From: Candidatus Binatia bacterium
Lineage (GTDB): Bacteria > Desulfobacterota > Binatia > HRBIN30
Length of the DNA: 64,000 nt
Direction of reading: 5' to 3'
Assembly (NCBI GenBank): GCA_050015455.1
Contig: JBEKBJ010000002.1
Coordinates: 1,091-65,090, forward strand
A program made the position numbers and the translations under genes. Below, one piece after another: positions 17,186 to 63,472 of the stretch (positions are counted from its first letter, which is position 1; every line of letters starts with the position of its first letter). The notes beneath the pieces are model-generated. The model did not search any database. It had not been told where the DNA came from and saw nothing but the letters and a program-made list of their open reading frames with translations.

Positions 17186-18913
17186 TCAGCCCGTCCCTGA
17201 CCCCGCGATGGGCAGGCTGGCGATGAACGTGGCCCCCTGACGGGGCGGGCTCTCGAACGCCAGGCTACCGCCCATTTTCTCCATGATGGAGTGGCTTATG
17301 GAAAGCCCGAGCCCGGTGCCTTGCCCCGGCGCCTTGGTGGTGAAAAAGGGATCGAAAACCCGTTCGCCCACCTCGGGCGGCACGCCCGGCCCACTGTCGG
17401 TTACCCTCACTTGCACGAAGGTGCCGTCACGCGTGGTGGCGATCACCAACCTACCGTTCTGGCCTGCGGCGTCAATGGCGTTGTTCAGCAGGTTCAGCAG
17501 TACCTGCTGCAGTTGGGCGCGGTCGGCCGGGATGAGCGGGAGGCCCGAATCCAGTTTGAGTTCCACAGCCAGGTTGTGGAAGCGCGCTTCCTTCTCGACA
17601 AAGGAGAAGGATTCTTTGACCACCTGGTTGACGTCTAGCTTCTCCAGGGTTGGCTCCGTACTGCGAGCGAACTTGAGCATGCGGTGGGTCACACCTCGAG
17701 CCCGTTCCACTTGGCCGAGTATCTTGGTGAGATTGTCTCGGCAGATATTGCCTTCCGGCAGCTGCGCCAGCACCTCAGGCTGCAAGATGTCTCCCAGCTC
17801 GCCGGCCAGCTCACCGATGGCGGCCAGGGGGTTGTTTATCTCATGCGCTACGCCAGCGGCCATGCGGCCCAAGGATACCAACCGAGCCGAGTGGGCCACT
17901 TGGGCGTCCAGTGCGGCGCGCTCACGGTCGTTGGCCTGGAGCTGCTTGATGAACAGCCGCACCAACAACAACACCAAAGCCAGGATGAGCAGGTTGGCGG
18001 CCCACACGATGGCCATGTCCACCCGTCTCGCCTGGCTCAAGGGTCCCGGCATCTCTCGGGGGTCCTGATCCACCACCAACAGCCAAGGCATGCTCGACAG
18101 CCATGTAAACGCCGTAAACAGCGTGCGCCCGCCCGGAACCTGCCGCTCCACGACCGTGTTTCCCGGTGGCACCGCCTCAATATTGAAGTCGGTGGGCGTA
18201 AGGATTCCCCCAGCGAAGCGGCTTGGGGTCTGCAATTGTCCGCGTGAGTTTACGATGTAGGCGTCGCCACTGAGGCCCACCTGGGCGCTGCGGACAAGGC
18301 GGTTGAACACCTCAGAGTCTATGGTGGCCCGCAGGATCCATGTCTCGCCTTCATCCTCCTGTTTCACCGCGATCACGAAGTGGGGCACCTTGCGTACGCC
18401 GAGAAAGACATCGCTGACATGCACCCCCCGGAGCATGACCTGCTGGAACCACTCCGCGTCGCGGTAGTTCTGGTTCTGCAGGGGATAGGGTCCCACATAG
18501 GACCTGTGGTTGCCCGAGGCATCGATGACCCCTAAGTCCAAAAAGGTCGAGGTGCGGCGGTTGAGCACTTGGAGGGCCTTTGTCAGCTCGCGCTGGTCGC
18601 TAAGTCGGGCCAGTTGGCCGGAATGGGCCAATACCTCCAGCACGGCAGTACGCTCGGCTAGGAAGAGCTCGATGGCCTCGGCGCGGTTGACCGCCCGTAC
18701 CAGCATCTCCTCCTTGAGCTTCTCCTGGTTGGCACTGACGAAGTAGTAGTAGATCCCGACCCCCAACAGGTTGAGGGGCAGAAGGGCCACCACGAGGCCG
18801 ACCAGGGTCATGCGCCGAGCAAGCTGGGAGTAATGCTTGATCACGAACCGGACTCCACGTTGCCAGATGTGGTGAGATTGTAGTCGCCCCTGCTGAAAGC
18901 CTCGGCCAGCCAT
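17186..18913 (-). CDS. sensor histidine kinase with periplasmic Cache-like domain
   Basis: N-terminal TM helix, a ~250-aa periplasmic region, and a second TM helix. HisKA H-box (VAHEINNPLAAI) and HATPase_c N/G-boxes (LLNNAIDA, DSGPGV, GTGLGL). The ATG at 18913 overlaps the 3' end of the upstream paralogue; an alternative ATG is at 18811. Confidence 0.85.
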   Translation of the reverse strand: MAGRGFQQGRLQSHHIWQRGVRFVIKHYSQLARRMTLVGLVVALLPLNLLGVGIYYYFVSANQEKLKEEMLVRAVNRAEAIELFLAERTAVLEVLAHSGQLARLSDQRELTKALQVLNRRTSTFLDLGVIDASGNHRSYVGPYPLQNQNYRDAEWFQQVMLRGVHVSDVFLGVRKVPHFVIAVKQEDEGETWILRATIDSEVFNRLVRSAQVGLSGDAYIVNSRGQLQTPSRFAGGILTPTDFNIEAVPPGNTVVERQVPGGRTLFTAFTWLSSMPWLLVVDQDPREMPGPLSQARRVDMAIVWAANLLILALVLLLVRLFIKQLQANDRERAALDAQVAHSARLVSLGRMAAGVAHEINNPLAAIGELAGELGDILQPEVLAQLPEGNICRDNLTKILGQVERARGVTHRMLKFARSTEPTLEKLDVNQVVKESFSFVEKEARFHNLAVELKLDSGLPLIPADRAQLQQVLLNLLNNAIDAAGQNGRLVIATTRDGTFVQVRVTDSGPGVPPEVGERVFDPFFTTKAPGQGTGLGLSISHSIMEKMGGSLAFESPPRQGATFIASLPIAGSGTG

Positions 18914-21426
18914 TCCACCATGTGCGGCCCCTCCATCAGCATGTCCAACTGGCGGGTGAAGAGCACGAACCGCCCGACTTCTTCAAGAACGCGCGCGATC
19001 TCGTCTAGCCCGCGCTTCTTCAGGAAGGCGTTGACCGCGTCACCAGTGCGCTCGGCGTTGAAGCCTAGGCCGTCGAGGATGCGCTGCACCAGCACCGCCC
19101 TGAGCGAGCGGCGATCCTCCGTGGCCGCGCCCCCATGGAATCGGAAGCTCACATAGTTGTCATTCAACCGTTGACCGCAATAGCAGTCCAAGGCCGTAAA
19201 GTGGTAACCCACCCGGCAGTTGAAGTTGAGGTACTCGGCGCCCAGAATAGCGTATGCTCGGCCACCCATGCTGCGCTGACCGGCCTCCTGAGGCGGAGCC
19301 AAGAGTGAGCCGCTGAAGACCGAGGCCAGACCTTTGAGGGTCACCGGTCGGGGAGACTTCCAGTCGATGCGCTGGTCGGTGAGCCCCTTCAGGAAGGCCG
19401 CGCCCGGTTTGGATTCCACGGCATCGAGTCCGGGCCTTTCCCCCGCGTCGGCACTCAGCCCGCCGCCCAAGTCGATGATCCACAAATCAAAGGGCAGCCC
19501 AACCTCCAGACGGCGGGCTTCTCCCCCTGCCCTCTGTCCCACCTCGTCGCCCAAGCGGAACATCTCCCTGAAAGACATCTCATGCATGAACCGGATCAAG
19601 TCGTGGAAGCTTTTGCAGTTCTCGGGCCGGAACTCCGGGGCCTTAGGGTCGGTGAGATTCAACCGGGTGATGAGCTGAACCGCCCTGAGCGCCAGGGGAA
19701 GCGCCTGCACCCTGCTGGCGGCGGCCTCAGTGGTGATCTTCTGGTCCAGCAATGCACCTACCCTGCCGGCGTAGACCTTGCGGTTGCCTGCGTCCAGGGT
19801 GATCTCCAAACCTGGAGTGAGGATTTCCAACGCCCCAGGCACGCCCAATAGCGCCGGCACCCCGTACTCCCGAGCGAGGGCGGCCAAGTGCCCAGCGACA
19901 CCACCCACCTCGGTTATCAGCGCCGCGGCCGCAGGCAGCAGCGCCGCCAGGGCCGGGGAAGACTCCCTAGCCACCAGTACCGCGCCGCTGGGAAAGCCAG
20001 CCATGTCGTCCATCCCGCGCACCAGATGCACCGGCCCACAGGCGGTGCCCGGCCGGCCGGTCTGCCCGCCACTTAAGATCACGGGCGCGGTCACACTGAC
20101 CTGAGTGGGGCTGGCCGGGCCCTGCACCACACGCAAGGGCCTAGCTTGCAATATCCACAGGTGTCCCTGGCTGTCCCGAGCCCACTCCACATCCAAGGTC
20201 TGGCCCAGGACGTTCTCGATGCGGGAGCCCATGGCAGCCAGCTCCTGGATAGCGTCGGCCGGCAGCACTTGTCCGCCGGCCTGCTCCAAATCAAGCTTCC
20301 GGCGTTGTACCCCTTCCGGCCCCACCACCAACATGTAATCTCTTCGGCCCGAGTGACGCACGGTGTGGCCGGCGTGGGGGCTCCGATCCACCGCGTAAAC
20401 GTCCGCGTCCAGCGATCCGTCAACCAGCCCCAGTCCGAGGCCTGGGACCGCGCTGATCACGGCCTGTCCGCTGCCTCCAGCCAGGGGATCGACGGTGTAG
20501 AGCACTCCACTGGCTGCCGGTTCGATCATGACCTGCACCAGCACGGCCATCTCAGCGTCCAAATCCGAAAGCCCCTGCCTTTGTCGGTAGGCCAGCGCCT
20601 GGGGAGAATACAAGGAGGCCACTACCGCCAGATACGCCTCGGACGCGTCGTCTGGGCGCACCCCCAAGCGGCTCGTGTAGAGCCCCGCGAAGGACGTGTT
20701 GGTGTCCTCGCCTAGAGCGCTGGAGCGCAGCGAGAGCGCAGCTCCGCCTTGGGCGGAGCTCAGCGCGCGGCACCGTTCCAGCAGTTCAAGTTCCAGATCC
20801 GCCGGAAGCTTGAGCGTGGCGAACTCGGCCTGGAAGCGGCGTGACCGCTCTTCCACGGCAGCCACATCGCCTCCCTCCGTCAGCATGGCCACCTGCCGTA
20901 GCCGTGCCCCCAGTCCAGTTTCGGCCATCACGCGACGGAAGGCCCCCGTGGTTATGACCAGCCCCTCCGGCACCGGCAGCCCTTGCTTGCGCAGGATAGC
21001 AAGGTTGCCGGCTTTGGCTCCGGTCAGATGATCCAGTCCAGGCTCCAAGGCATCCAGGGGAAGGAAGGTCGAGGCGACCGCGTCTTGGGCCTCGGTGGCC
21101 AGCAGCGCGTCTATCTGGTGGCGCACCTCGTTGAAGGGTGCCAACAGGGATATATAACGGTCGCCGGATATCAGGTTCAGATGGCGGATCATCAGAAAGA
21201 CCTTTGCACTGGCGGCGATGTAGCGGGAACGCAGAAAGTCCACCCCCAATACACCAGTCCGCTCCAGCGCACTCTGGATCTCAGCGATGATCTCCAACAC
21301 CTCGTTGTTGGCCCTGAGAAGGTACTGGAACTCCTTGAAGCGAAGCTTGAGCTGCACGAAGTCCGGACCAGACCGCCGCGAGGATCCGCGCAGGGTGCGC
21401 CAAGCCCTTGTAAAGCGGTTGGTCAC
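18841..21426 (-). CDS. PEP-utilising enzyme family phosphotransferase (PpsA/RPH-like), paralogue 2
   Basis: 861 aa, same architecture as 14158-16743. PPDK_N region (GAKAGNLAILRKQGLPVPEGLVITTGAF) and mobile His domain (GGVAGHLAALAREYGVPALLG). The ORF-track start is GTG. Confidence 0.8.
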   Translation of the reverse strand: MTNRFTRAWRTLRGSSRRSGPDFVQLKLRFKEFQYLLRANNEVLEIIAEIQSALERTGVLGVDFLRSRYIAASAKVFLMIRHLNLISGDRYISLLAPFNEVRHQIDALLATEAQDAVASTFLPLDALEPGLDHLTGAKAGNLAILRKQGLPVPEGLVITTGAFRRVMAETGLGARLRQVAMLTEGGDVAAVEERSRRFQAEFATLKLPADLELELLERCRALSSAQGGAALSLRSSALGEDTNTSFAGLYTSRLGVRPDDASEAYLAVVASLYSPQALAYRQRQGLSDLDAEMAVLVQVMIEPAASGVLYTVDPLAGGSGQAVISAVPGLGLGLVDGSLDADVYAVDRSPHAGHTVRHSGRRDYMLVVGPEGVQRRKLDLEQAGGQVLPADAIQELAAMGSRIENVLGQTLDVEWARDSQGHLWILQARPLRVVQGPASPTQVSVTAPVILSGGQTGRPGTACGPVHLVRGMDDMAGFPSGAVLVARESSPALAALLPAAAALITEVGGVAGHLAALAREYGVPALLGVPGALEILTPGLEITLDAGNRKVYAGRVGALLDQKITTEAAASRVQALPLALRAVQLITRLNLTDPKAPEFRPENCKSFHDLIRFMHEMSFREMFRLGDEVGQRAGGEARRLEVGLPFDLWIIDLGGGLSADAGERPGLDAVESKPGAAFLKGLTDQRIDWKSPRPVTLKGLASVFSGSLLAPPQEAGQRSMGGRAYAILGAEYLNFNCRVGYHFTALDCYCGQRLNDNYVSFRFHGGAATEDRRSLRAVLVQRILDGLGFNAERTGDAVNAFLKKRGLDEIARVLEEVGRFVLFTRQLDMLMEGPHMVEWLAEAFSRGDYNLTTSGNVESGS

Positions 21427-23765: not shown

Positions 23766-24010
23766 CAGCCGCTGCACCCGTTCAGCGCGTTGTTCACGGC
23801 CGTGAGGATCTCATCGATGGTGATCTGGCCATCGTGATTCGCATCGCCGGCCTCGCAGTTGAGAAGTGGTGGGTTGCCGACGGCGATGTTCACCGTCGTG
23901 AGGGTCTCGTTGATGGTTACGCCGCTGTCGGCGCTACAGTTGCCGGTGCAGCAAGGCGTCGGCGAGATGTCGGGGGGCCCGACGTTTCCGTCGGTGTGTC
24001 GACAGTCAGC
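23766..24010 (-). pseudogene. start-less 3' remnant of a dockerin-repeat protein gene
   Basis: Reverse-strand translation reads ...TGNCSADSGVTINETLTTVNIAVGNPPLLNCEAGDANHDGQITIDEILTAVNNALNGCSG*, i.e. two dockerin-like repeats ending at a stop. No start codon and no ORF-track entry. Matches the C-termini of the ORFs at 43282-43734 and 61292-63322. Confidence 0.45.
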
Positions 24011-24113
24011 GTGGTGGCAGCCGAAGTCGTCAGGTATCCGTCAGCTCGAAGGTCAACCTCTTTCCGTCCAACACGGCAACGAAATGGTTCATCCGATCGT
24101 AAACGGGCACGAG

Positions 24114-24389
24114 TTAGCCGATCAGCTCGGGAGAAGGGAGCTCGTAGACGGTGGGTTCCTTGTCGACCTTTCCGATGTAGAACGGAACGTCGCCGAGCTT
24201 CTCGAACATCCGTCGCGCCAATTGCTCATCATCGGCGTCGTGTCCAACGATGCGGCCGCGGTACGACGCCACGAACTGACCCGGGTAGCGGCGCATGAGC
24301 TGCGGGAGCTTCCGGCGAAACGGGTGCTCTTCCGCGGCCAGCGGTTCGTCTGCGAGCTCCAGCCGTCTGCGCGCCTTTGATGTGGCCAT
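24114..24389 (-). CDS. hypothetical protein (DUF5678-like small protein)
   Basis: 91 aa (LMRRYPGQFVASYRGRIVGHDADDEQLARRMFEKLGDVPFYIGKVDKEP), resembling the DUF5678 small-protein pattern. Sits between two dockerin remnants. Confidence 0.45.
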   Translation of the reverse strand: MATSKARRRLELADEPLAAEEHPFRRKLPQLMRRYPGQFVASYRGRIVGHDADDEQLARRMFEKLGDVPFYIGKVDKEPTVYELPSPELIG

Positions 24390-24487: not shown

Positions 24488-24600
24488 GTGACACCTGACC
24501 CCCGCCTCAGCCGCATCCATTGAGCGCGTTGTTCACGGCGGTAAGGATTTCACCGATGGTGATCAGGCCGTCGTGATTGGCGTCTCCGTCAATCGGTGAT
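24488..24600 (-). pseudogene. second short 3' remnant with one dockerin-like repeat
   Basis: Reverse-strand translation DGDANHDGLITIGEILTAVNNALNGCG*, near-identical at the DNA level to the end of the 23766 remnant. Confidence 0.35.
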
Positions 24601-24691
24601 TTCCGCGGAAATTCGTGTTCCACAAGGGTTTCACGATAGAAACGAGCCCCCAGGTGGACACAACTTGACAGCTCAGTAAACTGCTAACGGA

Positions 24692-28256: not shown

Positions 28257-31200
28257 TCACGGCGCGGGAAGAGGGGTAGTTCCGGCGCAGTAAATTTGGC
28301 CGTCGCTGGTCTGATCGATGAAGCTGATCATCGCATCGGCCAGCGCGCCCTGGGCCGTCGCATCGAGACAGGACGGACAGATCAACGCCTTCTGCTTGTT
28401 CACCGTTGCCGTCTTGGCGAGCACCGCCGCTTGCGCCTTGTCGTACGCGGCGCGACAGGAGGTCGGCGTGCCGCTTCCCTCTTCGCACGCTTGGACATTG
28501 AATGACTTGCTCTTGAGTGCCGCGTCAGCATCCTTTTTCTGGCAGCTGGTGATGCATCCCGCCAGTGTTCGCAGATTTCTGGAGACCGTGTCTTCACACG
28601 CACCGGTGTTCTTGTCCGGCGGTACGTATCCCGGGTTGCCACTCGGGAAACCGGCGGTGCCCGCGCAGTAGATTTGGCCGTCGAGCTGCTCCACGACGCT
28701 CATCGCCGACTCCGCCAAGGCGGTCTGCGCCGTGGCACCCAAACAGCTCGGGCAGATCGGCTGCTTTACCCCCTTCACCCTCACTGTCCTCGCAAGCACC
28801 GCCGCTTCCGCCTTGTTGTACGCGGCGAGGCAGGAGATCGGCGTGCCGGTTCCCTGCTCGCACGCCATTTCGTCAAAGGATTTGTTTTGCAGCGCGTAGT
28901 CAGCCTCCTTCGTTTGGCAATTGGCCGTGCAGACTACGAGTTTCTTTATGTTCTTCGCGACCGTATCTTCGCAGCTATCCGCGCTGGAATTGGGAGGCAC
29001 CATAGCCTCCGGCGTGTACGTTGGGGTCGGCGTGTTGGTCGGCGTCGCGGTCGCTGTCGGGGTGACTGTCGGGGTGTTGGTGATGGTCGGCGTTTGAGTC
29101 GGCGTGTTGGTAATCGTCGGCGTCTGCGTTGGCGTGTTGGTAATCGTCGGCGTTTGCGTCGGTGTATTGGTAATCGTCGGCGTCTGCGTTGGCGTATTGG
29201 TGATGGTCGGCGTTTGCGTCGGTGTATTGGTAATCGTCGCCGTCCGGGTCGGGGTGTTCGTGATCGTCGGGGTTAGGGTCGGGGTGTTGGTGATGGTCGG
29301 CGTTTGGGTCGGGGTATTGGTGATGGTCGGCGTTTGAGTCGGCGTGTTGGTAATCGTCGGCGTCCGAGTCGGGGTGCTGGTAATGGTCGGCGTCTGCGTC
29401 GGCGTGCCCGTTGGGGTGTTGCTGGCCGTCGGCGTCGGGGTGTTCGTCCGCGCGTTGGTCGGGGTGGCGGTTGCGGGGCTTGCGGGTGCGGGTGTGGGCG
29501 TGGCCGCCGCCGAGTTCGCCTCGAAGGCGCCGATGGAGCAGTTGGTGGCACCTGTACCGGGCCGGACGAAGCCGCGTTGGTCGAGGTTGTCCACGGGCGC
29601 GGTACCGGTGGTCGTCGAACAGACGCTCTCGTTGCCGGCATTGATCGCGGGGCTCGCCCCCGTGCATCCCGCGCTGGGGGCACCTGTGCCTGTACAGAGG
29701 GCGACCGTCTGCGTTGGGCCGCCGTTGCTCTGGCGCCCGGTGGGGTCGAGAACAGGGTTCGTGTTACAGAACGAGCTGCCGCTGGTAGTGGTGCAGCCGG
29801 TGCCCGTGAAACCACACGTCGTGCCGTCGTCGATGTTGTGGCCGCCATCAGTCACGGGACCGGCGCAATTGCCGCCCGAGCTGCTGGCGACTATCGTGTT
29901 GATGGCCGTCACGGTGCCGCCGTCGTTCTGGATAGCGCCGCCGCCCGTGCCCGCGCTATTGCCGGCGAAGGTGCTGTTGGTGACGGTCAGCGTCCCGCTG
30001 TTGGAGATGCCGCCGCCGCTGTCGGTCGCACTATTGCCGGAGAAGGTACTGTTGGTGAGCGTCAACGTGCTGCCGCTGTTATTGTTGATGCCGCCGCCGT
30101 AAGCGCTCGCGCTATTGCCGGCGAAGGTGCTGTTGGTAACCGTCAGCGTGGCGCCGTAGTTATTGTAGATACCGCCGCTGTAGCTCGAGCTATTGCCGGA
30201 GAAGGTGCTGTTGGTGACCGTCAGCGTGGCGTTGTTAAAGATGCTGCCACCGTAGTCTGCCGCGCTATTGCCGGAGAAGGTGCTGGTGGTGACCGTCAGC
30301 GTGCCGTTGTTGGTGATGCCGCCGCCGAAGGCGCCGGAGATATTGCCGGAGAAGGTGCTGTTAATGAGCGTCAGCGTGCCGTTGTTGGTGATGCCACCCG
30401 CGGCGCCCGCGTCATAGCCCTTGGCGATGGTCAGGTTCTGAACCGTGAAGTTGACGCCAGAGTTTACGGAGAAGACGCCCACCTTATTCCCGCCGCTGAT
30501 GGTGATCAGACTCCCACCGTCAATGGTCGTGTCGGTGCCAATAGTTTTGGTGCCGGTGACGGTGATCGTGGCGGCGCCGCCGCAGTTGAAGGTCACGTTA
30601 TGGCCGAAACTCCCGCCGCCGGGGAGGCAGGCAGTCAGCGCCGCCTCAGTGCAGCTCGTCCCCGTGCCGGTGCCCACCACGCACGCCGGGGCCGCTGTGG
30701 GTGTTGGCGGCGCGGTCGGCGTTATGGTGGGTGGCGTCGCCCCCATTGCCGCCAGCAGATTCCCTGCATCGGGGCTACCAAGACCGGTCACCATGTCGTA
30801 ACCGACGCCAGCGCTGTACGCGCCGTTCGAACCGCTGGTGATGTCATGGAAGGCGGAGCTGCCACACAACCCGTACAGCAGCGCACCCGGATTCCCGAGG
30901 CCACTGCCACCAACTCCCTCGTTCAAATCAGCGAACAAGCCGGCCCATTGTGGCGCCGCGTCGGAAGTGCCGCCGACGATGTACCACCCGAAGTCGAACG
31001 CAAGGTAGTTGCCGGGGGACGGATTGGCTGCCAAGGCCACATCGGGCACCAAGCGCTGGGTTCCGCTTGGCACGGCGCATCCGGTTTGAAACGCGGGGCG
31101 TGAAAACACCTGACTGATGCCCCCGCCCGAGCCGCTCCAACCGCTCTCAGAGCCGTATCCGCCACAGCCCGGGCTCGAGGAGGTCATGCCGCCGCTGCAG

Positions 31201-32348
31201 CTCGGCGTGGTCCCGCCAACTCCCATCACGTGCGGAGAATTGGCCGGATGATCCAAACAATTGCTCCCGTTGTCACCAGACGCAGCGAACCAGGTCTGCC
31301 CAATCGCGTTGGCGTTGGCGAAGATGCCGTCATTCGTTTGCTGCGTGGCCGCGGACGTGCCCGCTTCACAGCTTCCCCAGCTCGTGGTGACCACGTGGCC
31401 GGGGTTGTCGGTCACGATGCGGTTGTACAGCGTGGTGAAATCCGACAACGCGCTCGAGGCCGCCATGTAGTTGAGAATGACGGCGCCCGGTGCGGTGCCG
31501 TGCGCGTACTCAACGTCCAAGGAAACCTCGTCGGAGGGGTTGTTGAACGTACAACCGCTGGACCCAATCGCGCCAGTGCACACCTGGCCACTGCCACTCG
31601 GCAGCGCGGGCAGCCCCCATTGCGAGTCGAATGTGGCGACATCGGTGTCCAACCACGCGTAGGCTCCCGCGATCACCAGCGTCTGGCCCGCCCCCGCGTA
31701 GGTGCCGCCGTTGTCGTAGAATACCGCCAGGTCGTTCGGACTCAGGGCGCAGCAGTACGATCCGAACGCGGCACCGGGGGCGAGCGCGGGTTGTGTGCTC
31801 CGGCGGACGTTCGTGTGCATGCTGACGAGATCATCCAGACCGAGGATGCCCACGACGTCGCCGGCGATCTCGGCTGGCCACGTGGGTTCGTTGATGGCCG
31901 CGTAGTGTGTCTCCCCCCCGAAGATCACTCGGTAGGACTCCACGCCAAAGGCGTGTTCGAGCGCCGCAACACCGCCGACCGCTCCAACCAGCAGCCGATT
32001 GGAGAAGCGGTCGGTTACGGTAAAACCGTTGCCTGCGAGGTAGTCCACCACACCCTGCTCTGCATCGGCCGCCGGCGCATAACGGGCGTTGAATTCGTCT
32101 TGGGTCAGGAACTGACCGTATTGCGGGGAGTCAGGATTCTGCACCTCGGCGAGAAACCGTTCCAGGTCATCGCGATTTCTGAGCTCGAGGCCAACGACGA
32201 TGCTATGGCGAGTGGCGGGATGTTCGCGTTCCAGGATTGTCGCCTCGCCGAGGCGGGGGGACGTTGAATGTGCACGAGCGTACACGGGCGCTTGCAACCC
32301 CAGCGCTAGCAGTACGCCCGTCACCACGCTCGCAGCATTGATCCTCAT
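28257..32348 (-). CDS. giant secreted multidomain protein: signal peptide - propeptide/S53 sedolisin peptidase - CSLREA/Pmp-type beta-helix - Thr/Pro tandem-repeat linker - 2x novel 8-Cys C-terminal module
   Basis: 1363 aa. Signal peptide [25 protein letters not shown]53 motifs [10 protein letters not shown] (oxyanion Asp) and [14 protein letters not shown] (catalytic Ser). CTEAAL... followed by NSTFSGNSA beta-helix repeats. [10 protein letters not shown] repeats encoded by 30-nt tandem repeats. Tandem C-terminal modules [19 protein letters not shown]...ICPSCL...DGQIYCAGT. Confidence 0.85.
29060..29400. repeat. perfect/near-perfect 30-nt tandem repeat array (~10 units) encoding the [10 protein letters not shown] linker
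   Basis: Units such as ggcgtgttggtaatcgtcggcgtctgcgtt repeat head-to-tail inside the CDS. Confidence 0.8.
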
Positions 32349-32614: not shown

Positions 32615-35600
32615 CTACGGCAGTGGGACGGTCCCCGCGCAGTAAATTTGGCCGTCGCTGGTCTGACCGATGAAGCTGATCATCGCGTTGGCCAGCGCGC
32701 CCTCGGCCGTGGCATCGAGACAGGACGGACAGATCGCCACCTTCTGCCCGTTCACCGTTGCCGTCTTGGCGAGCACCGCCGCTTCCGCCTTGTCGTACGC
32801 GGCGCGACAGGAGATCCGCGTGCCGGTTCCCTCGCACGCTCGGACATCAAATGTCTCTTTCTTGAGCGCCGCGTCAGCCTCCTTTTTTTGGCAGCTGGTG
32901 ATGCATCGCGCCAGTGTTCGAACATTTCTGGAGACCGTGTCTTCACACGCACCGGTGTTCTTGTCCGGCGGTACGAAGCCCGGGTTACCACTCGCGAAAC
33001 CGATCGTGCCCGCGCAGTAGATTTGGCCATCGAGTTGGTGCACGACGCTCGTCGCCGAGTCCGCCAAGCCGTTCTGCGCCGTGAGGCCCAGACAGGCCGG
33101 GCAGATCGGCACCCTCTTCTTGTTCACCGTTGTCGTCCGCAAGAGCACCGCCCATTGTGCCTCGTCGTACGCGGCGCGACACATTCCCTCGCACGCCATT
33201 TCGTCAAAGGATTGGTTTTTCAGCGCGTAGCCGGCCTCCTTCGTTTGGCAATTGGCCGTGCAGACTACGAGTTTTTTTATGTTCTGCGCTACCGTATCCT
33301 CGCACGTATCCGTACTGGAATTCGGGGGCACCATGGCCTCCGGCGTCGCCGTGGGTGTGGGCGTTGCCATCGGCGTCCCTGTTGGGGTGTTGGTCGGCGT
33401 CGCAGTTGGTGTTGCCGCTGGGGTGCTCGTCGGCTCGGCGCATACCCCGCCGGCACACGTTCCACTGCGGCATTGGGAGCCGGCGGTGCAGCTCGTTCCA
33501 TCGTTGCAGTCATTGGTCTGCCCGCAGCACGAGTTGCTGTCGCAGGCGCCGCCGGTGCATTGCGACGCGCTCGTGCAGCCCGACCCATCACCGCAGTTGG
33601 CGATGCAGGCTGCGGCGTTCGCCTCGAAGGCGCCGATGGAGCAGTTGATCGCGCCCGCACCGGGCCGGACGAAGCCGCGTTGGTCGAGATTGTCGACGGG
33701 CGCGGTGCCGGTGGTCGTCGAACATACGCTTTCGTTCCCATTGTTGATCGCTAGGCTTACTCCGGTGCACGAGGCAGGAGAACCCACGCCGGTACACAAA
33801 GCGATGGTTTGGGTCGGCCCACCGTTATCTGCCAAACCCGCCGGATCGAGCATCGGGTCGAACGCACCGATGGTTGTGCCACACGTCGTGCCGGGGAATT
33901 GCAGGTTGTGGCCGCCGTCAGTGATGCCGCCGCCACCGATGCCACTGTCGGCGCAGCCGCCCGCCAGGATGGTGTTGATGACGGTTGGCGGCGTGGTTCC
34001 CAGGTCGGTGGCGATGCCGCCGCCGCTATTGCCGGAGAAGGTGCTGTTGGTGATCAAGGTCGAGCCCTGGCTGAAGATGCCGCCGCCGGAGCCCGCGCCA
34101 TTGCCGGAGAAGGTGCTGTTGGTGACCGTCACCGTGCGCTGGTTGTAGATGGCGCCGCCGACGTAGACCGCGCTATTGCCGGAGAAGGTACTGTTGGTGA
34201 CCGTCAGCGTGCCCACGTTGAGGATGCCGCCGCCGCCGTTGCCGGTGCTAAGCGAGCTATTGCCTGAGAAAGTGCTGTTGGTGACCGTCACCGTGCCACC
34301 TCCGATGAGGATGCCGCCGCCGGAGCCCGCTGATCCGTTGGCGATCGTCAGGTTCTGGACCGTGAAGTTGGCGGCAGGCACGGAGAAGACGCCCACGCTG
34401 TTCCCGCCGCTGATCGTGATCAGACTCCCGCCGTCAATGGTGGTGTCGGTGCGAATGGTCTTGGTGTAGGTGACAGTAATCGTGGCAGCACCCCCGCAGT
34501 CGAAGGTCACGGTGCCGCCGCCGAGGAGGCAGGTGTCCAGCGCGAACTCGGTGCAGCTCACCCCCGTGCCGGTGCCCACGACGCACGCCAGGGCGCGCGT
34601 CGGTGTTGGCGTTGCGGTTTCGGTCGGGGTGTTGGTCGGCGTCCGGGTCGGTGTATTGGTCGGTGTGGCCGTCGGGGTGTTGGTTGCGGTTGGTGTCTGA
34701 GTCGGGGTCTTGGTCGACGCCTGGGTCGGTGTATTGGTCGGTGTGGGCGTCGGGGTGTTGGTCGCGGTTGGTGTCTGAGTCGGGGTGCTGGTCGACGTCT
34801 GAGTCGGCGTGCTGGTTGGCGTCACCGTCGGGGTGGTCGTCAGGGTCGCGGTGGGAGTCGCGGTTGCGGTTGGCGTCGCGGTTTCGGTCGGCGTCGGGAT
34901 CGGGGTGGCCGGGCTGAGCTCGGCCACGAAGGCGTTCGATCCGCCGTTGGCGGCAGCATTGTTGGTGCTCTGGAAGGCATTCAGGGTGGGGAAGTTGTTC
35001 GACCACGCAAAGCCCGTGACGTAGGCGTTGCCGGAGGAATCGACCGCGATGCCGTTGCCATAGTCCCAGAAGCTTCCGCCCAAGTAGGTCGAATAGAGCA
35101 GCGATGCCGCTCCCGACGCCGATGGGTTGAGCTTGGCCACGAAGGCTTCGATTTCGCCGTTGTAGCTCAAGCCGTTCAGGGTGGGGAAGTCGGGCGAGGC
35201 GGTAGATCCCGTGACGTAGGCGTTGCCGGAGGAATCGACCGCGATGCCGTGGCCAGAGTCGCCGTTATTGCCGCTGCCGCCGAGGTAGGTTGAATAGAGC
35301 AGCGACGCCGCTCCCGACGCTGACGGGTTGAGCTTCGCCACGAAGGCGGTACCAGCGTTACTATCGCCGGCGTCGGGGACGTTGTTGGTGCTTTGGAAGG
35401 CGTTCAGGGTGGGGAAGTTGGCCGAGGCCGTATTTCCTGTGACATAGGCGTTGCCGGAGGAATCGACGGCGATGCCGTAGCCATAGTCGCCACGAAAGGC
35501 CGGGCCAAAGCCTTGGAAGCCTTGGCCAATGTTGCCGCTGCCGCCGAGGTAGGTCGAATAGAGCAGTGACGCCGCTCCTGACGCTGCCGGGTTGAGCTTG

Positions 35601-37687
35601 GCCACGAAGGCGGTATACGCGTTATCGGGGCTGGCGTTGGCGGCGGCATTGTTGGTGCTCTGGTAGGCGCCCGCAGTGACGGGGAACGCAACGCACGTGC
35701 CGGTCCCGTTCCCGGTGCAGCAATAAGCAGGTGTGTCGGAGCCGGTACAACTGGAGTTGCCGATCGAGGTCGTCCATCCCGTGACGTAGGCGTTGCCGGA
35801 GGAATCGACCGCGATGCCGGTGCCAGAGTCGTAGACGCTGCCGCCGAGGTAGGTCGAATAGAGTAAGTCCGCCGCGCCTGTTCCCGCCGGGTTGAGCTTG
35901 GTCACGAAGGCGTTCTCGGTGGCATTAAGCGTGCTCTGGAAGGCGTTCAGGGTGGGGAAGTCGGCCGAGCCCGTATATCCTGTGACGTAGGCGTTGCCGG
36001 AGGAATCAACCGCGATGCCGTTGCCAGAGTCGTACACGCTGCCGCCGAGGTAGGTCGAATAGAGCAGTGATGCCGCTCCTGACGCCGACGGGTTGAGCTT
36101 GGCCACGAAGGCGTTAACAAGGCCGGCGTTGGTGCTCTGGAAGGCGCCCGCAGTGACAGGAAACGCCATGCACGTGCCGGTTCCCGCCCCAGCGCAGCAA
36201 GTCTGAGGTACGCCCGAGCCGGTACAACTGGAGTTGCCGATCGAGCTCGTAACTCCCGTGACGTAGGCGTTGCCGGAGGAATCGACCGCGATGCCGTAGC
36301 CAGAATCGCCGCCGCTCCCGCCGAGGTAAGTCGAATAGAGCAGCGATGCCGCTCCCGACGCCGACGGGTTCAGCTTGGCCACGAAGGCGTTACCAAGGCC
36401 GGCGTTGGTGCTCTGGAAGGCGTTCAGGGTGGGGAAGTTGGTCGACTCCGTATATCCTGTGACGTAGGCGTTGCCGGAGGAATCGACCGCAATGCCGGTG
36501 CCATAGTCGCCGTCGCAGTTATATTCACCACAGAAGACGCCGCTGCCGCCCAAGTAGGTCGAATAGAGCAGCACCGGATCGATCACAATCGGCTTGCTCC
36601 GGTCGTAACTCGCCAGCTTAAAGCCCGCCTCGTCCGCGCCCCGGATCACCCATCCGCCCGCGATCGTTTGCTCCTTGCCGCCTGTAGTCTCCTGATAAAT
36701 CTCCGGCGCGTGCTCGATGAGTTGGTTCTTGCCCGCGCTCACGACCAGATCGCCCCGCTTATTCAGCGCGAGCTTGCGGACGCCCTTGAAGCTGAGCCGG
36801 ATCGCTTTCGGATCGGCGCCCGGCGCAAGCCGGAAATCGTACTCAAGCCGGGCCTGCTCGCTGCCGTGGTAGATGAGATCGATTCCGGGATAGACCTCCT
36901 TGAGCTCGACCTTGGCGTAGTTGGGAACATCGGTGTGCCACTGCTTGGGGTCGTTGCCGATGAAATAGTTGGACTTGCCCACCATCCGCTCGAGGCCGCC
37001 GATTTGCGACGCGCGCGCCGCCCCCTTGAGCGCGATCCGCACCACCGCCGCCTCCGCCTCAGCAGCTTTTTTCCTGTCATTCCTGCGTGTGGCTGCCGCG
37101 CGAGAGCCTGTCCCTTCGACAAGCTCAGGGCGGGCTCTGAGGCCGCCGAAGGAAATCCCCGATGCGGGCCCCCTCGACTTCGGAGACTTCACTCGCGATG
37201 ACTGAAAAGAATCAGGGCGACCGGGGAAAAAAGAGTGTGCGCCTTCCGGCGCGGGCGACCGCATCGCAATCACCGCCTCGCCGGGCGTGATGAACAGCGT
37301 GTAACCCTGCCCGTGCGATAGGAACTTGACCCGCGGATCGCTCTGGCCGAGGTTCGGCTCGAAGCGCATCGGCAGCTTTACGAGCGATAGGTGCGGCGGA
37401 CGATTCGGCGCGGAGGGCGCGTGCGACCGTCTGCGTCGGCCCGCCGTTGTCCTGGAGCCCGGTGGGGTCGAGAACGGCTCTTCTCCCAGCTGCTGACCGC
37501 CTGGCTGCTGTGCACCGGGCGGCGCACGGTGACCGACACGCTGCGCTGTCAGTGTGCGGGACGGACAGGTTTCACTGCCAGTGCCCACGACACACGCCAG
37601 GGCGCGCGCGGGCAGAGTGAGACATGGCAGGAGCAGAGCCAGCCCTAAGCCGCTGCATCGCAGTTGACCGCCGAAACGTGTGCTCAT
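32615..37687 (-). CDS. giant secreted multidomain protein: signal peptide - SBBP beta-propeller repeats - Thr/Pro linker - CSLREA/Pmp-type beta-helix - Cys-rich knot - linker - 2x novel 8-Cys C-terminal module
   Basis: About 1690 aa from the ATG at 37687 (signal peptide [31 protein letters not shown]). About nine SBBP-type repeats ([34 protein letters not shown]). A beta-helix region starting SCTEFAL. A CX-rich segment [30 protein letters not shown].... The C-terminal ~700 nt is ~90% identical to the 3' end of 28257-32348. Confidence 0.85.
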
Positions 37688-38185
37688 CGGGCACCTCTTT
37701 TCCACCGATATCTCCCAGACAGGCCGCTGCCCGGCGTGTGTGGTTGGCAAATCGAGGCTCGCACGCTTGCCCCCGACGAGACCGTCGTATCCCGCGTGCA
37801 GGCCACCGGACGTCATCCGAGGCCGATCATGTTGACATACGGTCGCGGTGATTACACCCTACACCCTGTGGCGTCAACCAAAATCGTCACAGTGGCCGTA
37901 CAAATCACGCAAGAGATGACCAATGTCAGTGTGGACTCCGTAAACTTACGGAGTTTTGACCTCACAGACGGTCACCATCCTTCCCCCGTCCTTCCTCCCG
38001 AATCGCAATCACCGTCATCGGCGCAGCGGATCGGTGTCGCCAGAGCCGTCATCTCCGACTTTGAGGACGACGACTTCGAGGGCGACGCGCTCGGGCTCCT
38101 CCAATGGATCGCTGGCGCACTCGACAAGACCGTCGAGATCTGCGTAATGCCGCGGAAGACCAAGCGGCACGCCGCGTGAGCAGTC

Positions 38186-43281: not shown

Positions 43282-43734
43282 CTAGTGGCTGCACCCGTTC
43301 AGGGCGTCGTTCACGGCCGCAAGGATTTCGTCGACGGTGATGTACCCATCGTGGTTGGCATCTCCGGCATTGATCGCCGGGCTGGCCGTACTGCTCGTGC
43401 AGGACGCGTTGGGTATATCAATGCCGCCGCATAGCGCGATGGTTTGAGTAGGCCCGCCGTTGTTCTGGAGCCCGGTAGGGTCGAGAACAGGGTTCGTGTT
43501 ACAGAACGAGGTGCCGGTCGTGGTGGCGCAGCCGGTGCCCGTGAAGCCGCACGTCGTGCCGTCGTCGATGTTGTGGCCGCCATCAGTAACGCTGCTGCTG
43601 AACATGTCGTTCGCCCAATTGCCGCCCGAGGTGCTATTGGCGACGATCGTGTTGGTAAGCGTCAGCGGGCCGCCGTCGGTGTAGACGGCGCCGGCGTCGC
43701 CCGCGCTATTGCCGGAGAAGGTGCTGTTGGTCAC
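43282..43734 (-). pseudogene. 5'-truncated paralogue of the beta-helix/dockerin surface-protein family
   Basis: 150-aa ORF starting inside a beta-helix repeat ([20 protein letters not shown]...). It has the conserved [18 protein letters not shown]...[24 protein letters not shown]...PAINAGDANHDGYITVDEILAAVNDALNGC end. Similarity to the beta-helix repeats stops at about 43736, with no upstream signal peptide or enzymatic head. Confidence 0.55.
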
Positions 43735-43913
43735 CGTTAGCGCGGCTCGCGACGCAGCCTGTGAATCAGCGCCACCACGTCCGGTGAGTTGCTGGTGCGC
43801 TCTTGAACGAGGTCGCGACTCGGACGCGCCGTGAGGTAGCTCACAATCGTTGTTTCCACGTACACGCTCGACGCCATCACGCCACGCTACCGCAGACCGA
43901 CATCGGGGTTTAG

Positions 43914-43980
43914 CACCGATCGTCTCTACGGACCCGCGCAGTCGGAACTTACGGCTTGTCGGTGCTCGGCGATCAAACCG
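43914..43980. repeat. 68-nt dispersed direct repeat, copy B
   Basis: caccgatcgtctctacggacccgcgcagtcggaacttacggcttgtcggtgctcggcgatcaaaccg, ~90% identical to copy A. Confidence 0.75.
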
Positions 43981-59448: not shown

Positions 59449-59679
59449 ATGTCGCACGTGGTCGCTATCGAGTTGGAAATGCCGGACGACCTGGCCCGCT
59501 TTCGCTTGCCGCTCGCTGTGAACCAGCGTCTCCAGGAGCTACTCGACCGCCAGGATCGCGGTGATCGGCTGACGGCTGCGGAGCGCAAGGAAGCCGAAGG
59601 CCTCGTGAATCTGGCGGAGTTGCTGTCGCTCCTGCAGCTGCGCGCCGCACGAGTGAGGAAGCCGGCAAGGAAGTTGTGA
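59449..59679 (+). CDS. hypothetical small protein (antitoxin-like), translationally coupled to the HNH nuclease
   Basis: 76 aa with a strong GAGAGGAG Shine-Dalgarno. The stop overlaps the downstream ATG (ATGA). Confidence 0.4.
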   Translation: MSHVVAIELEMPDDLARFRLPLAVNQRLQELLDRQDRGDRLTAAERKEAEGLVNLAELLSLLQLRAARVRKPARKL

Positions 59680-60098
59680 GCGAGGTTCCCGCCCCACGGC
59701 GCCGCTTGGTGCGGCGCCGTGCCCAGAGTCGGTGCGAGTACTGCAGGCTGTCGCAGGAGGGCCAGGAAGCCACGTTTCATATCGATCACATCGCTCCCAG
59801 GCACACCGGCGGCCCGACGCGGGCCGATAATCTCGCGCTGGCCTGTGTGTCGTGTTCTCTGCGGAAACAGGCCCGGCGGTCGGCTGTTGATCCCGCGACC
59901 AGGCGAATCGTCCCACTGTTTCATCCTCGCCGCCAACGCTGGGCAGACCACTTATGCTGGGAGGGCGTCCGGGTCGCTGGTTTGACGGCCACCGGCCGGG
60001 CTACCGTAGCCGCGTTGCGCATGAACCATCCTTTGATCCTTGCCATTCGACAAGAAGAGGCCTTGCGCGGCCGCCATCCGCTTGCGGGAAGGTGCTGA
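59676..60098 (+). CDS. HNH endonuclease
   Basis: CEYC...HIDHIAP...GG...NLALACVSCS is the HNH (His-Me finger) zinc/catalytic motif. 140 aa. Confidence 0.75.
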   Translation: MSEVPAPRRRLVRRRAQSRCEYCRLSQEGQEATFHIDHIAPRHTGGPTRADNLALACVSCSLRKQARRSAVDPATRRIVPLFHPRRQRWADHLCWEGVRVAGLTATGRATVAALRMNHPLILAIRQEEALRGRHPLAGRC

Positions 60099-61291: not shown

Positions 61292-63322
61292 TCAGCCGCC
61301 GCCTGACCGACGTACGCTTATCAACGGGACACTGGAGTTGTCGCAGAACTGACCCACCGGAGCGCAAGGGGGCTGCCAACATCCATTCAACGCGTTGTCC
61401 ACTGCGGTGAGAATCTCATCCACCGTGATCTGGCCGTCGCCGTTGGCATCACCCGCCTGACACGCGGCCATCGGCGCGTTTCCGAGGGCCATATTCACCA
61501 TAGTCAGAATATCATCGACCGTGACCTGACCGTCGCCGCTACAGTCGCCCACGCACACGAGCGGCAGAAGGGAGACGACGACAAAACCGTCGGAGCCCAC
61601 CGTGTTGGAGAGCTGCACACCCTGCGGGCTGTACGCGGCAGCATTGCCAATTGACAGGCGATACGTACCTGGCAACGCGGAAGGGGCAACGCTGAAGATG
61701 CAGGTGTACAGGGTTCCGTCCGGCATGGGGCTGGTGTTCTGAGCGGACTGAACGAAGAATCGCAAGGTTTTTGTGGATACATCGTCCTGCACAACACTCG
61801 CGACAAGCAACTTGCCGATCGCCGGGTTGACTTGGCAGTCGGAGGGATCGAGGCCGAGGATGCCAGGGTCAAAGCTAATGTCGTTGCCGGTGGCCGCGAC
61901 GCTCGTCCCGGACGACCTGAGCGACACCGCCACCGTGACCGTGTCTCCCGGCAAGCCGTTGGCCGATCCAATATCCATATGCACAATGCGAGGCGTTGGG
62001 GTTAGTGTCGGGGTGGGGGTTCGCGTCGGCGTCTGGGTGGCCGTTGGCGTCACCGTAGCCGTTCGCGTCACAGTTGGCGTCGGCGTGATCGTGCGGGTTG
62101 GCGTGATCGTGCGGGTTGCTGTCGGAGTGTCGACCACGCAAAGTAGTGTGCTCTCGCACGTGGCGCCGTAGAGCACAGTGCAGTCCCCGCACGAACCGTT
62201 GATTGGGGCAGCGCAGCTTGTCGGACACTGACAGCAGTCTGAAGCTCCGGCTGGAGGTCCGGGCGAATTAAACTCATAGGCGCCGATCGAACAACTGGTT
62301 GCGCCAGTACCGGGCCGGATGTACCCGCGCTGGTCGAGGTTGTTCACGGGCGGTGCGGCGCAAATTGTCTCATCACCAGCGTCGATTGCCGGGCTGCCGG
62401 CTTGGAGGGCAATGGTTTGGGTCGGTCCGCCGTTGTTTGCTAAACCCGCTGGGTCAAGCATCGGGTTGGTCGCAGGACCAACACCACACGTCCCATCCGA
62501 GTCCAGGTTATGGCCGCCATCAGTAACGCCGCCGGTGCCGGCGCAATTGCCGCCCGCGGCGCTATTGGCGACGATAGTGTTCGTGACCGTCAGCGGGGTT
62601 TTGCTGTTGTAGATGCCGCCGCCGTAGTCGCCCGCGCTATTGTCGGAGAAGGTGCTGTTGGTGACCGTCACCGTGCCGTCGTTGAGGACGGCGACCTCGC
62701 TGAAGATGCCGCCGCCGAGGGTCGCCGCGCTATTACCGGAGAAGGTGCTGTTGGTGATGGTGACCGTGCCGCTCTCGTTTCCGATGCCGCCGCCGCCGTA
62801 GTTGTAGTTGCCGTGTGTGCTATTGCCGGAGAAGGTGCTGTTGGTGACCGTCAGCGTGCCGTAGTAGTTGTAGATGCCGCCGCCGACTACGGCGCTATTA
62901 CCGGAGAAGGTGCTGTTGGTGATGGTGACCGCGCCCGAGTAGTTGAAGATGCCGCCGCCGCCTTCGCCGCTGGTCCCGTTTGCGATGGTCAGGTTCCGGA
63001 CCGTGAACGTGACGCCAGTGCTCACGGAGAAGACGCCCACGCTGTTCCCGCCGCTGATCGTGATCAGACTCCCACCGTCAATGGTGGTGTCGGCGCTGAT
63101 GTACTTCGTGCTGGTGACGGTAATCGTGGCGGCGCCCCCGCAGTTGAACGTGAGGTCGCCGCCGCCCGCAAGGGCCGCGTCCAACGCGGCTTCGGTGCAG
63201 CTGCCAGGGGTGCCGGTCCCGACGACGGCGTCACCGCGCGCGGGTCGGGGCGACCATGCAACGAACGCCACCACCGCGAACGTCGCGGCAATGCCGGCCC
63301 ATTGTGGCACGTGTGGGGTCAT
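61292..63322 (-). CDS. secreted beta-helix surface protein with Thr/Pro linker, cohesin-like domain and two C-terminal dockerin-like repeats
   Basis: Signal peptide MTPHVPQWAGIAATFAVVAFVAWSPRPARG. CTEAALDAALAGGG...[11 protein letters not shown] start. NSTFSGNSA Pmp-type repeats. TPTxT linker. Cohesin-like segment (IVHMDIGSANGLPGDTVTVAVSLRSSG...TLYTCIFSVAPSALPGTYRLSIGNA). Repeats GDCSGDGQVTVDDILTMVNMALG and GDANGDGQITVDEILTAVDNALNGC. Confidence 0.85.
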   Translation of the reverse strand: MTPHVPQWAGIAATFAVVAFVAWSPRPARGDAVVGTGTPGSCTEAALDAALAGGGDLTFNCGGAATITVTSTKYISADTTIDGGSLITISGGNSVGVFSVSTGVTFTVRNLTIANGTSGEGGGGIFNYSGAVTITNSTFSGNSAVVGGGIYNYYGTLTVTNSTFSGNSTHGNYNYGGGGIGNESGTVTITNSTFSGNSAATLGGGIFSEVAVLNDGTVTVTNSTFSDNSAGDYGGGIYNSKTPLTVTNTIVANSAAGGNCAGTGGVTDGGHNLDSDGTCGVGPATNPMLDPAGLANNGGPTQTIALQAGSPAIDAGDETICAAPPVNNLDQRGYIRPGTGATSCSIGAYEFNSPGPPAGASDCCQCPTSCAAPINGSCGDCTVLYGATCESTLLCVVDTPTATRTITPTRTITPTPTVTRTATVTPTATQTPTRTPTPTLTPTPRIVHMDIGSANGLPGDTVTVAVSLRSSGTSVAATGNDISFDPGILGLDPSDCQVNPAIGKLLVASVVQDDVSTKTLRFFVQSAQNTSPMPDGTLYTCIFSVAPSALPGTYRLSIGNAAAYSPQGVQLSNTVGSDGFVVVSLLPLVCVGDCSGDGQVTVDDILTMVNMALGNAPMAACQAGDANGDGQITVDEILTAVDNALNGCWQPPCAPVGQFCDNSSVPLISVRRSGGG

Positions 63323-63472
63323 GGAAAACGTGTTCAGCCGGCGAAGTTTGCAACGCCTGGTAGGTGTCAGTCAAGGGACAAGGCCCCCCACTCATGCGAA
63401 ACAACGGCGCCGGCGCCGAGGCCCCACCGCTCCTGAGGTGTCCCGCGAAACGCGGGACGACATCACACACAA

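Follow-up and report, generated by a model that had tools for sequence, protein, structure and literature searches.

A cohesin–dockerin cassette at the C-terminus of a beta-helix protein of Candidatus Binatia and its possible role in a non-cellulosomal surface-assembly system

Organization of the gene at 61292–63322

The gene studied in this work is located on the minus strand, at positions 61292–63322, of a 64,000-nucleotide (nt) stretch of DNA from a Candidatus Binatia bacterium (contig JBEKBJ010000002.1; the whole stretch is hereafter called the window). It encodes a protein of 676 amino acids (aa) in which a beta-helix head is followed, behind a Thr/Pro-rich (T/P) linker, by a cohesin and a dockerin. 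The features of this gene and three further dockerin-coding sites of the window are listed in Table 1. The exact 676-aa protein was also recorded on 10 metagenome contigs of 50–200 kb.

Table 1. Features of the intact gene and of the other dockerin-coding sites (positions in the window; HMM, hidden Markov model; ORF, open reading frame)
Feature	Position	Strand	Evidence
Intact gene, putatively secreted 676-aa beta-helix protein with C-terminal cohesin–dockerin cassette	61292..63322	-	ORF list
Probable Sec signal peptide, aa 1–30, hydrophobic core AGIAATFAVVAFVAW, then PARG/DAVVGTG	63233..63322	-	Sequence
Right-handed beta-helix with PMP-type repeats, aa ~60–260	62543..63145	-	Pfam Chlam_PMP, TIGR01376
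Choice-of-anchor Q domain, aa 286–352	62267..62467	-	NCBIfam NF041518
Cys-rich stretch DCCQCPTSCAAPINGSCGDCTVLYGATCESTLLC, aa 360–396	62135..62245	-	Sequence only
T/P linker, aa 397–444	61991..62134	-	Sequence
Type-I-like cohesin, aa 445–585, clade-invariant C496 and C541	61568..61990	-	Pfam, profile, fold
Dockerin, aa 587–649, two Ca loops each with a helix after it, C590/C594/C621/C648	61376..61564	-	Pfam, AlphaFold2, Foldseek
C-terminal tail WQPPCAPVGQFCDNSSVPLISVRRSGGG, 27 aa after the dockerin	61295..61375	-	Sequence
Headless remnant with complete two-loop dockerin (open frame 23768–24040)	23771..23953	-	Dockerin HMM 3–63, 100.3 bits
Remnant with half dockerin, second loop and helix (open frame 24510–24683)	24513..24590	-	Dockerin HMM 37–62, 45.9 bits
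5'-truncated beta-helix/choice-of-anchor Q paralogue with half dockerin (43288–43374; loop 2 and helix only, in open frame 43285–43980)	43282..43734	-	Dockerin HMM 35–63, 46.5 bits

The first 30 residues, inspected by eye, probably form a Sec signal peptide, and the orthologues P0272 and P0274 (P numbers denote proteins and L numbers genome loci) have clear signal peptides ahead of the same mature N-terminus, VVGTG..SCTE. The repeats of the beta-helix were recognized by the Pfam model Chlam_PMP (22.3 bits, cut-off 20.6) and by TIGR01376 POMP_repeat (15.8 bits, cut-off 15), and the domain behind them matched NF041518 with 68.1 bits (cut-off 25) over the full profile (1–58 of 58). In NCBIfam the choice-of-anchor families take their name from the alternative anchoring devices found at the C-termini of their members, and a dockerin in this place fits. 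Identity with the chlamydial Pmp autotransporters was considered, as the protein has PMP repeats, and was rejected because no autotransporter barrel domain was found by Pfam at E≤10 and the C-terminus is occupied by the cohesin and the dockerin. No family match was obtained for the Cys-rich stretch, and T/P linkers like the one following it also separate modules in relatives of the protein. Inspection of the sequence of the 27-residue C-terminal tail revealed no hydrophobic anchor; in the final block of the structural model of the cassette, which ends at aa 660, the predicted local distance difference test (pLDDT) value was 48.

The cohesin module

The segment at aa 445–585 carries the pattern GDTVTVAVSL...LYTCIFSV...LPGTYRLSI. 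When this segment was scanned in isolation, the Pfam cohesin model PF00963 scored 28.5 bits (cut-off 24.1, profile 2–137 of 139, E 2e-6), and cohesin was absent from the Pfam list at E≤10 when the whole 676-aa protein was used. The cut-off of PF00963 was passed by 7 of 16 clade members. A search of the PDB sequences with the single sequence retrieved the Clostridium thermocellum CipA cohesin 3kcp_A (E 1.7e-5), and a profile of 16 clade members aligned over the full length with some 20 solved cohesins, the best of which was 6kgc_A (E 1.5e-9). The identity of the modules to the solved ones is 15–30%.

An AlphaFold2 model of aa 441–660, built from a 102-row alignment, had a mean pLDDT of 92.7 and a predicted TM-score (pTM) of 0.71, and its cohesin part was all-beta. 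In the Foldseek comparison with the PDB the 50 best matches of the cohesin model were all cohesins. The type I cohesins were the best of them, headed by 6kgc_A (E 3.8e-13, TM-score of 0.81 on the target, root-mean-square deviation (rmsd) of 2.4 Å), and the non-cellulosomal cohesin 2xdh of Archaeoglobus appeared at rank 14 (E 9.9e-11). The all-beta model superposes on the solved cohesins, whose defining fold is a nine-stranded jelly-roll beta-sandwich. C496 and C541 are invariant in the clade alignment (A1) and could form a disulfide. Pfam, clade profile and fold all agree, and they confirm the segment as a genuine cohesin.

The dockerin module

Two 12-residue Ca-type loops, DCSGDGQVTVDD at 61511–61546 (aa 593–604) and DANGDGQITVDE at 61415–61450 (aa 625–636), follow the cohesin. 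The Pfam model PF00404 Dockerin_1 gave 22.6 bits in the whole protein and 28.2–29.5 bits with the isolated module (cut-off 22.9). Separating dockerin from EF-hand by sequence only was attempted and failed, as both types of model score alike, and among the 60 PDB matches listed for a dockerin clade profile of 31 members there were EF-hand chains and no dockerin. Since the sequence was ambiguous, the 64-aa module was modelled alone and the question was settled by its fold.

This second AlphaFold2 model (pLDDT 92.6, pTM 0.79) has helices at residues 16–26 and 48–60 of 64, straight after each loop, and none before loop 1. A segment of about 22 residues, with a 12-residue Ca loop and then a helix, is thus present in two copies within some 60 aa and, in the model, this arrangement is the F-hand duplication typical of dockerins. 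Foldseek ranks 1–26 were all dockerins (2ccl_B, 6kgf_B, 8x39 and others; TM-score 0.56–0.67, rmsd 2.3–3.8 Å), and calmodulin-type EF-hand proteins appeared from rank 27 on (TM-score 0.2–0.4, rmsd 8–12 Å). The small size of the domain keeps the E-values of this comparison weak (best 0.013), but the order of the ranks was clear. The modelled structure supports that the tail has a dockerin fold and is not a canonical EF-hand pair. The earlier note made on this DNA from its letters alone had described the 676-aa ORF with a cohesin-like segment and two dockerin-type repeats; all of these are present as described, and the repeats are dockerin-like by fold even though EF-hand models score alike.

C590, C594, C621 and C648 are invariant across the dockerin clade (alignments A4/A5) and may form two stabilizing disulfides; to our knowledge, four invariant cysteines are not a feature of clostridial dockerins. 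The two repeats, DCxGDGQVTVDEILTMVNIALGN and DANGDGQITVDEILTAVNNALNG, are near-symmetrical, which by analogy would be compatible with the dual binding mode of type I dockerins that the titles of PDB entries 2vn5 and 2ccl refer to. In P0274, an orthologue of the same architecture, the second Ca loop is degenerate (CPNGIPSGTQVDVALILQAVNNALNGC) and, as a consequence, its dockerin has a single intact Ca-binding loop.

The similar scores of the EF-hand models raise the alternative that cohesin and tail do not pair at all. The tail would then serve as a generic stability module that binds Ca and is stapled by disulfides, and the cohesin fold as a spacer or as the binder of another ligand or partner. 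EF-hand Pfam models and EF-hand PDB chains do score at least as well as dockerins by sequence, and there are cohesin-like folds for which no dockerin partner is known. The fold itself argues in the opposite direction, as its duplicated loop-helix superposes on dockerins (TM-score ~0.65) and not on EF-hand pairs, and so do the co-occurrence of both modules in the same proteins and genomes and the near exclusion between anchors and dockerins on multi-cohesin proteins described below. We consider this alternative improbable.

Other dockerin-coding sites in the window

A six-frame search of the 64 kb for the loop pattern identified exactly five sites, all of them on the minus strand and each followed by the helix ILTAVNNALNGC. 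A clade-specific dockerin HMM gave 46–120 bits at the loop sites, the next best piece of the window reaching about 3 bits, and because these scores are far above the rest of the window the features are real and not due to chance. Outside the intact gene the dockerin is complete only in the frame whose translation is CCTGNCSADSGVTINETL...DANHDGQITIDEILTAVNNALNGC. BLASTP of the truncated paralogue against the intact protein aligned aa 204–335 at 50% identity and then jumped to aa 620–648, so that the linker, the cohesin and loop 1 are missing from the paralogue, as is the signal peptide. These three sites are gene remnants amid toxin-antitoxin-like fragments and not functional partners. As they have no signal peptide or head, their export is unlikely, judging from their sequences.

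These findings bear on the rest of the earlier note, which had placed the same repeats on further genes and proposed a cellulosome-style network of CSLREA/Pmp beta-helix proteins, in a context free of carbohydrate-active enzymes (CAZymes) except for the sedolisin and SBBP heads. The further repeats exist, one as a complete two-loop dockerin and the other two only as second loop and helix. The non-CAZyme context holds, and the network within the window does not, as only one cohesin is present there and the remaining sites are remnants. Docking of the intact protein to its paralogues in the window is likewise unsupported because the three other sites are headless or 5'-truncated. Sedolisin is a peptidase, and neither it nor the SBBP protein has a cohesin or a dockerin.

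A DUF5678-like gene (24114–24389, minus strand; Pfam 22.2 bits, cut-off 23.2) lies between two of the dockerin-coding 3' fragments. A 79-nt direct repeat, 84% identical, links 23771–23849 with 24510–24588 on the minus strand. A fresh target-site-like duplication around the gene was rejected, as the identity is 84% over 79 nt and the substitutions are scattered; the fragments look like old paralogous ends. The truncated paralogue is abutted by a 47-aa ORF (43737–43880, minus strand) that resembles by eye the N-terminus of a PIN/VapC-type toxin, and gene fragments seem to be patched together in this region.

Relatives of the protein and heads bearing the dockerin

All the NCBI-named homologues of the tail belong to Candidatus Binatia. 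The genomes were scanned for loci with the alignment of close cohesins (A3), and 7 of the 8 loci with a close cohesin were in metagenome-assembled genomes (MAGs) of Candidatus Binatia, the eighth being titled 'uncultured bacterium'. The closest of these matches was 57% identical and, therefore, the species of the window is not among the GTDB representatives.

The clade dockerin (~75% identical, with invariant C4, C8, C35 and C62) ends 115 of the 120 proteins listed in the search with the tail. The dockerin is almost uniform, and the Binatia cohesins are divergent (27–72% identity). Its heads include MtrC/MtrF-like, c7 and c3 cytochromes, cupredoxins, Sortilin/BNR and FG-GAP propellers, CarboxypepD_reg and Kazal domains. 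Among the 120 relatives closest to the beta-helix protein, 81 ended in a dockerin alone and 3 in the cohesin–dockerin cassette. The cassette-bearing orthologues P0272, P0274 and P0277 (57–67% identity) have the same layout as the 676-aa protein, and the cassette was also found behind a YVTN propeller head (L008). In addition, small secreted proteins consisting only of cohesin and dockerin occur in both module orders, with short junctions or long T/P linkers.

The junctions are the basis of the main rival explanation, an intramolecular clasp in which the dockerin folds onto the cohesin of its own chain and gives a closed unit, structural and stabilizing or auto-inhibited, and no node of a network. 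The junction is indeed very short and conserved as VSL(V/L)PL(V/P)CVGDC in the window protein, P0001–P0004, P0006, P0013, L008, P0272, P0274 and P0277, and the two-domain AlphaFold2 model keeps a pLDDT of 81 across it (pTM 0.71). A clasp does not agree, however, with the T/P linkers of 40 to more than 60 residues or the reversed order of P0011, P0012, P0014, P0015, P0017–P0019 and P0107, nor with the presence of the dockerin alone on most relatives and the existence of multi-cohesin proteins. On this evidence we regard the clasp as unlikely.

The nature of the heads also bears on the possibility of a true cellulosome, in which the beta-helix would be a pectate-lyase-like enzyme and the system would organize CAZymes. 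Right-handed beta-helices do include polysaccharide lyases, and a weak Pfam match to DUF5123 (E 1.3) was the sole hint in this direction. Against it, no glycoside hydrolase, polysaccharide lyase, carbohydrate esterase or carbohydrate-binding module (CBM) family was detected in the window proteins scanned, and none of these was among the 25 head families shown for the 120 tail-bearing relatives, where cytochromes, cupredoxins, propellers and the like were found. A true cellulosome is accordingly very improbable.

Cohesin family and candidate anchors

A word-indexed homologue search with the cohesin alone yielded 4 matches, and an exhaustive profile search was used instead. This gave 4,466 cluster representatives with this type of cohesin, 1,998 of them at E≤1e-10. 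The best 150 representatives had a mean of 2.8 cohesins and a maximum of 8. A C-terminal tail built of a Cys, a spacer, a hydrophobic transmembrane (TM) helix and an Arg cluster (Cys+TM+Arg) was present in 47 of these 150, a lipobox-like N-terminus in 27 and the clade dockerin in 42. Tail and dockerin never occurred together, and lipobox and dockerin did so once; such near mutual exclusivity of anchor and dockerin is as expected of a hierarchical docking system.

The motif of the tail in these 47 of 150 representatives (P0121–P0270) is D-D-G-C-x-I-(8-10 aa)-G-W-L-L-L-L-P-x3-L-L-W-L-R-R-R. Compared with MYXO-CTERM (TIGR03901, cut-off 20 bits), P0149 scored 23.4 bits, P0226 19.3, L011 17.5, P0183 17.0 and P0174 16.6, and the tail of L006 matched JDVT-CTERM best, with 17.3 bits (cut-off 27). 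The Cys+TM+Arg tail may be a separate, uncurated sorting signal. No SLH domain or LPXTG motif was seen in the proteins scanned.

Anchored cohesins of both kinds were found in the Binatia MAGs. Loci L006, L009 and L011 encode an FG-GAP head with a cohesin and a GGGC-TM-RRRR tail, and L010 a lipoprotein-like cohesin protein; L007, from the MAG that bears no title other than 'uncultured bacterium', encodes five cohesins in a protein of over 2,300 aa. Within single Binatia MAGs, anchored cohesins coexist with cohesin–dockerin or dockerin proteins (L005 with L009, and L008 with L010). Candidate partner cohesins are therefore abundant in related genomes, and the domain content of these genomes, with the dockerin on many unrelated heads and cohesins on anchored multi-cohesin proteins, suggests a network that the window itself does not display. 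The earlier note had named two findings that would refute it, failure of the cohesin-like segment in HMM or structural comparison and generic EF-hand or thrombospondin repeats with no partner domain in the genome. Neither applied, as the segment passes both comparisons and related genomes are rich in partner cohesins.

Other genes of the window

Antisense ORFs of up to 308 aa overlap the intact gene (e.g., 62510–63436, plus strand). No protein family supports them, and the high G+C content and repetitiveness of the coding sequence seem to have generated them. The surroundings of the gene are rich in genes for HNH endonucleases and for toxin-antitoxin systems (MNT/HepT, HigB, BrnT), both in the window (59676–60098, plus strand) and in L001 (5391–7078 and 14251–14532).

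Two giant proteins, also putatively secreted, are encoded on the minus strand: a pro-kumamolisin/sedolisin of 1363 aa with a long T/P 'extensin-like' run (28257–32348) and a protein of 1733 aa with an SBBP propeller, DUF7948 and a beta-helix (32615–37816). Both were considered as members of the dockerin set and rejected, since neither the cohesin nor the dockerin HMM matched them. The same strand carries a 501-aa NapC/NirT-type multihaem cytochrome without dockerin (12656–14161); multihaem cytochromes elsewhere in Binatia bear it. Two paralogous 861-aa proteins with PPDK_N and PEP-utilizer domains (14158–16743 and 18841–21426, minus strand) are located around a dCache sensor histidine kinase (17186–18913, minus strand).

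Discussion

We consider it reasonably probable that the 676-aa protein acts as cargo and, at the same time, as adaptor in a cohesin–dockerin system for surface assembly that is shared across the lineage and is not cellulosomal. According to this proposal, the protein would be exported and its dockerin would plug, presumably in a Ca-dependent manner, into a cohesin of another protein. Ultimately, this docking would lead to a multi-cohesin scaffold that is fixed to the envelope through either a lipoprotein-type N-terminus or a C-terminal sorting tail of the Cys+TM+Arg kind. The own cohesin of the 676-aa protein could receive the dockerin of one more protein, so that complexes might be extended as chains and the protein, with a plug and a socket, would be cargo and adaptor at once. 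What the analysis shows is the identities and folds of both domains, the taxon, the recurrence of the cassette as a module, the diversity of the heads that bear the dockerin, and the existence of anchors and dockerins on multi-cohesin proteins with near exclusion between the two.

Several points weigh against this proposal. That these cohesins bind these dockerins is something that we infer. EF-hand models match the tail as well as Dockerin_1 does (EF-hand_1, 26.4–28.3 bits, cut-off 25.4), and the 7-residue junction between cohesin and dockerin might favour an intramolecular arrangement. In the 64-kb window there is a lone cohesin, and neither an anchor-type protein nor a scaffoldin, the proteins with several cohesins being found in relatives (five in L007 and up to 8 among the best 150 representatives), and the toxin-antitoxin and HNH neighbours of the gene have no functional link to it. 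Moreover, the library behind the 4,466 cohesin representatives carries no taxon names, and the MYXO-CTERM match of the tails is weak, with one of the six tail-bearing proteins above the cut-off of 20 bits. The intramolecular clasp stands as the main rival, and we give less weight to a true cellulosome and to a generic role of the modules in Ca binding or as a spacer.

By fold, the modelled modules belong with the cohesins and the dockerins. The same two folds are present in the clostridial type I pairs (CipA/Xyn10B of C. thermocellum, 1ohz/2ccl, and CohA2-Doc0917 of Clostridium acetobutylicum, 6kgc), with TM-scores of 0.81 for the cohesin and ~0.65 for the dockerin. As in those pairs, the Binatia dockerin has two loop-helix repeats about 32 residues apart and is placed C-terminally, after a T/P linker, on secreted proteins. 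In contrast, it has four invariant cysteines and its cohesin two, no CAZyme cargo was found, and the candidate anchors are lipobox-like N-termini or Cys+TM+Arg tails and not SLH domains or sortase signals. Because neither CAZyme cargo nor SLH or sortase anchoring was found, this is not a cellulosome sensu stricto. Candidatus Binatia is a Gram-negative lineage. The choice-of-anchor Q/PMP-repeat surface proteins share the head with the window protein, but a cohesin precedes the dockerin in only the three mentioned of the 120 closest relatives, and there is no barrel.

A non-cellulosomal context and the cohesin fold are shared with Archaeoglobus fulgidus (2xdh), in which one protein carries a cohesin as well as a dockerin, and the two modules reportedly interact. 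The cohesin family described here, unlike the archaeal one, has thousands of cluster representatives, many of them multi-cohesin; the passages of PMC9012536 on A. fulgidus mention few genes and no multi-cohesin scaffoldins. The same source, where it deals with the anaerobic methanotrophic (ANME) archaea, describes many dockerin and cohesin proteins, including scaffoldin-like ones with a dockerin and up to 5 cohesins, and a non-CAZyme cargo made up mainly of substrate-binding proteins of ABC transporters (PMC9012536). The bacterial cargo found here consists instead of beta-helices, propellers, multihaem cytochromes and cupredoxins. In Cloacimonadota (Ca. Stygibacter), another Gram-negative candidate lineage, a cellulosome-like complex deduced from MAGs comprises dockerin-tagged secreted proteins and a large multi-cohesin scaffoldin with a C-terminal sorting domain (PMC8542988). 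The Binatia system differs from it by having no CAZymes or CBMs and by its tails. As such, cohesins and dockerins outside cellulosomes are known from numerous bacteria and archaea (Peer et al., 2009, cited by PMC9012536 and PMC8542988). The Binatia system stands out by modules stapled with cysteines, by the cassette in tandem, by its types of anchor, by a cargo that includes redox proteins and by the size of the family, and no paper was found in the literature on Binatia with dockerin or with choice-of-anchor.

A broader view can be advanced as a tentative possibility, about which we are rather doubtful. Binatia, and possibly neighbouring lineages, might maintain a large general-purpose cohesin–dockerin display in a Gram-negative envelope. 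Disulfide-stapled dockerins would be carried by hundreds of secreted proteins, including MtrC/MtrF-like multihaem cytochromes and cupredoxins, and multi-cohesin scaffolds would be held by lipoprotein anchors or by the uncurated Cys+TM+Arg tail. Tandem cassettes like that of the 676-aa protein could polymerize head to tail into extended arrays, and the whole would be an extracellular redox and adhesion scaffold and not a cellulosome.

Cohesin–dockerin pairing is known from textbooks as the way in which cellulosomes are built, and protein engineers make wide use of it. For the gene at 61292–63322 alone the outcome is more modest, an unusual cargo-plus-adaptor architecture that had been correctly recognized. 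If the interpretation is right, it would also provide new orthogonal, possibly disulfide-stabilized cohesin–dockerin pairs for synthetic scaffolds and a candidate for a new C-terminal sorting signal. If the Binatia modules do bind each other, an uncultured lineage would be using this pairing on a large scale, with thousands of cohesin cluster representatives, to organize non-carbohydrate proteins (multihaem cytochromes, cupredoxins, propellers and adhesin-like beta-helix proteins among them), on another type of envelope and with other anchors. This would offer a testable approach to the construction of the surface of Binatia and, possibly, to extracellular electron transfer.

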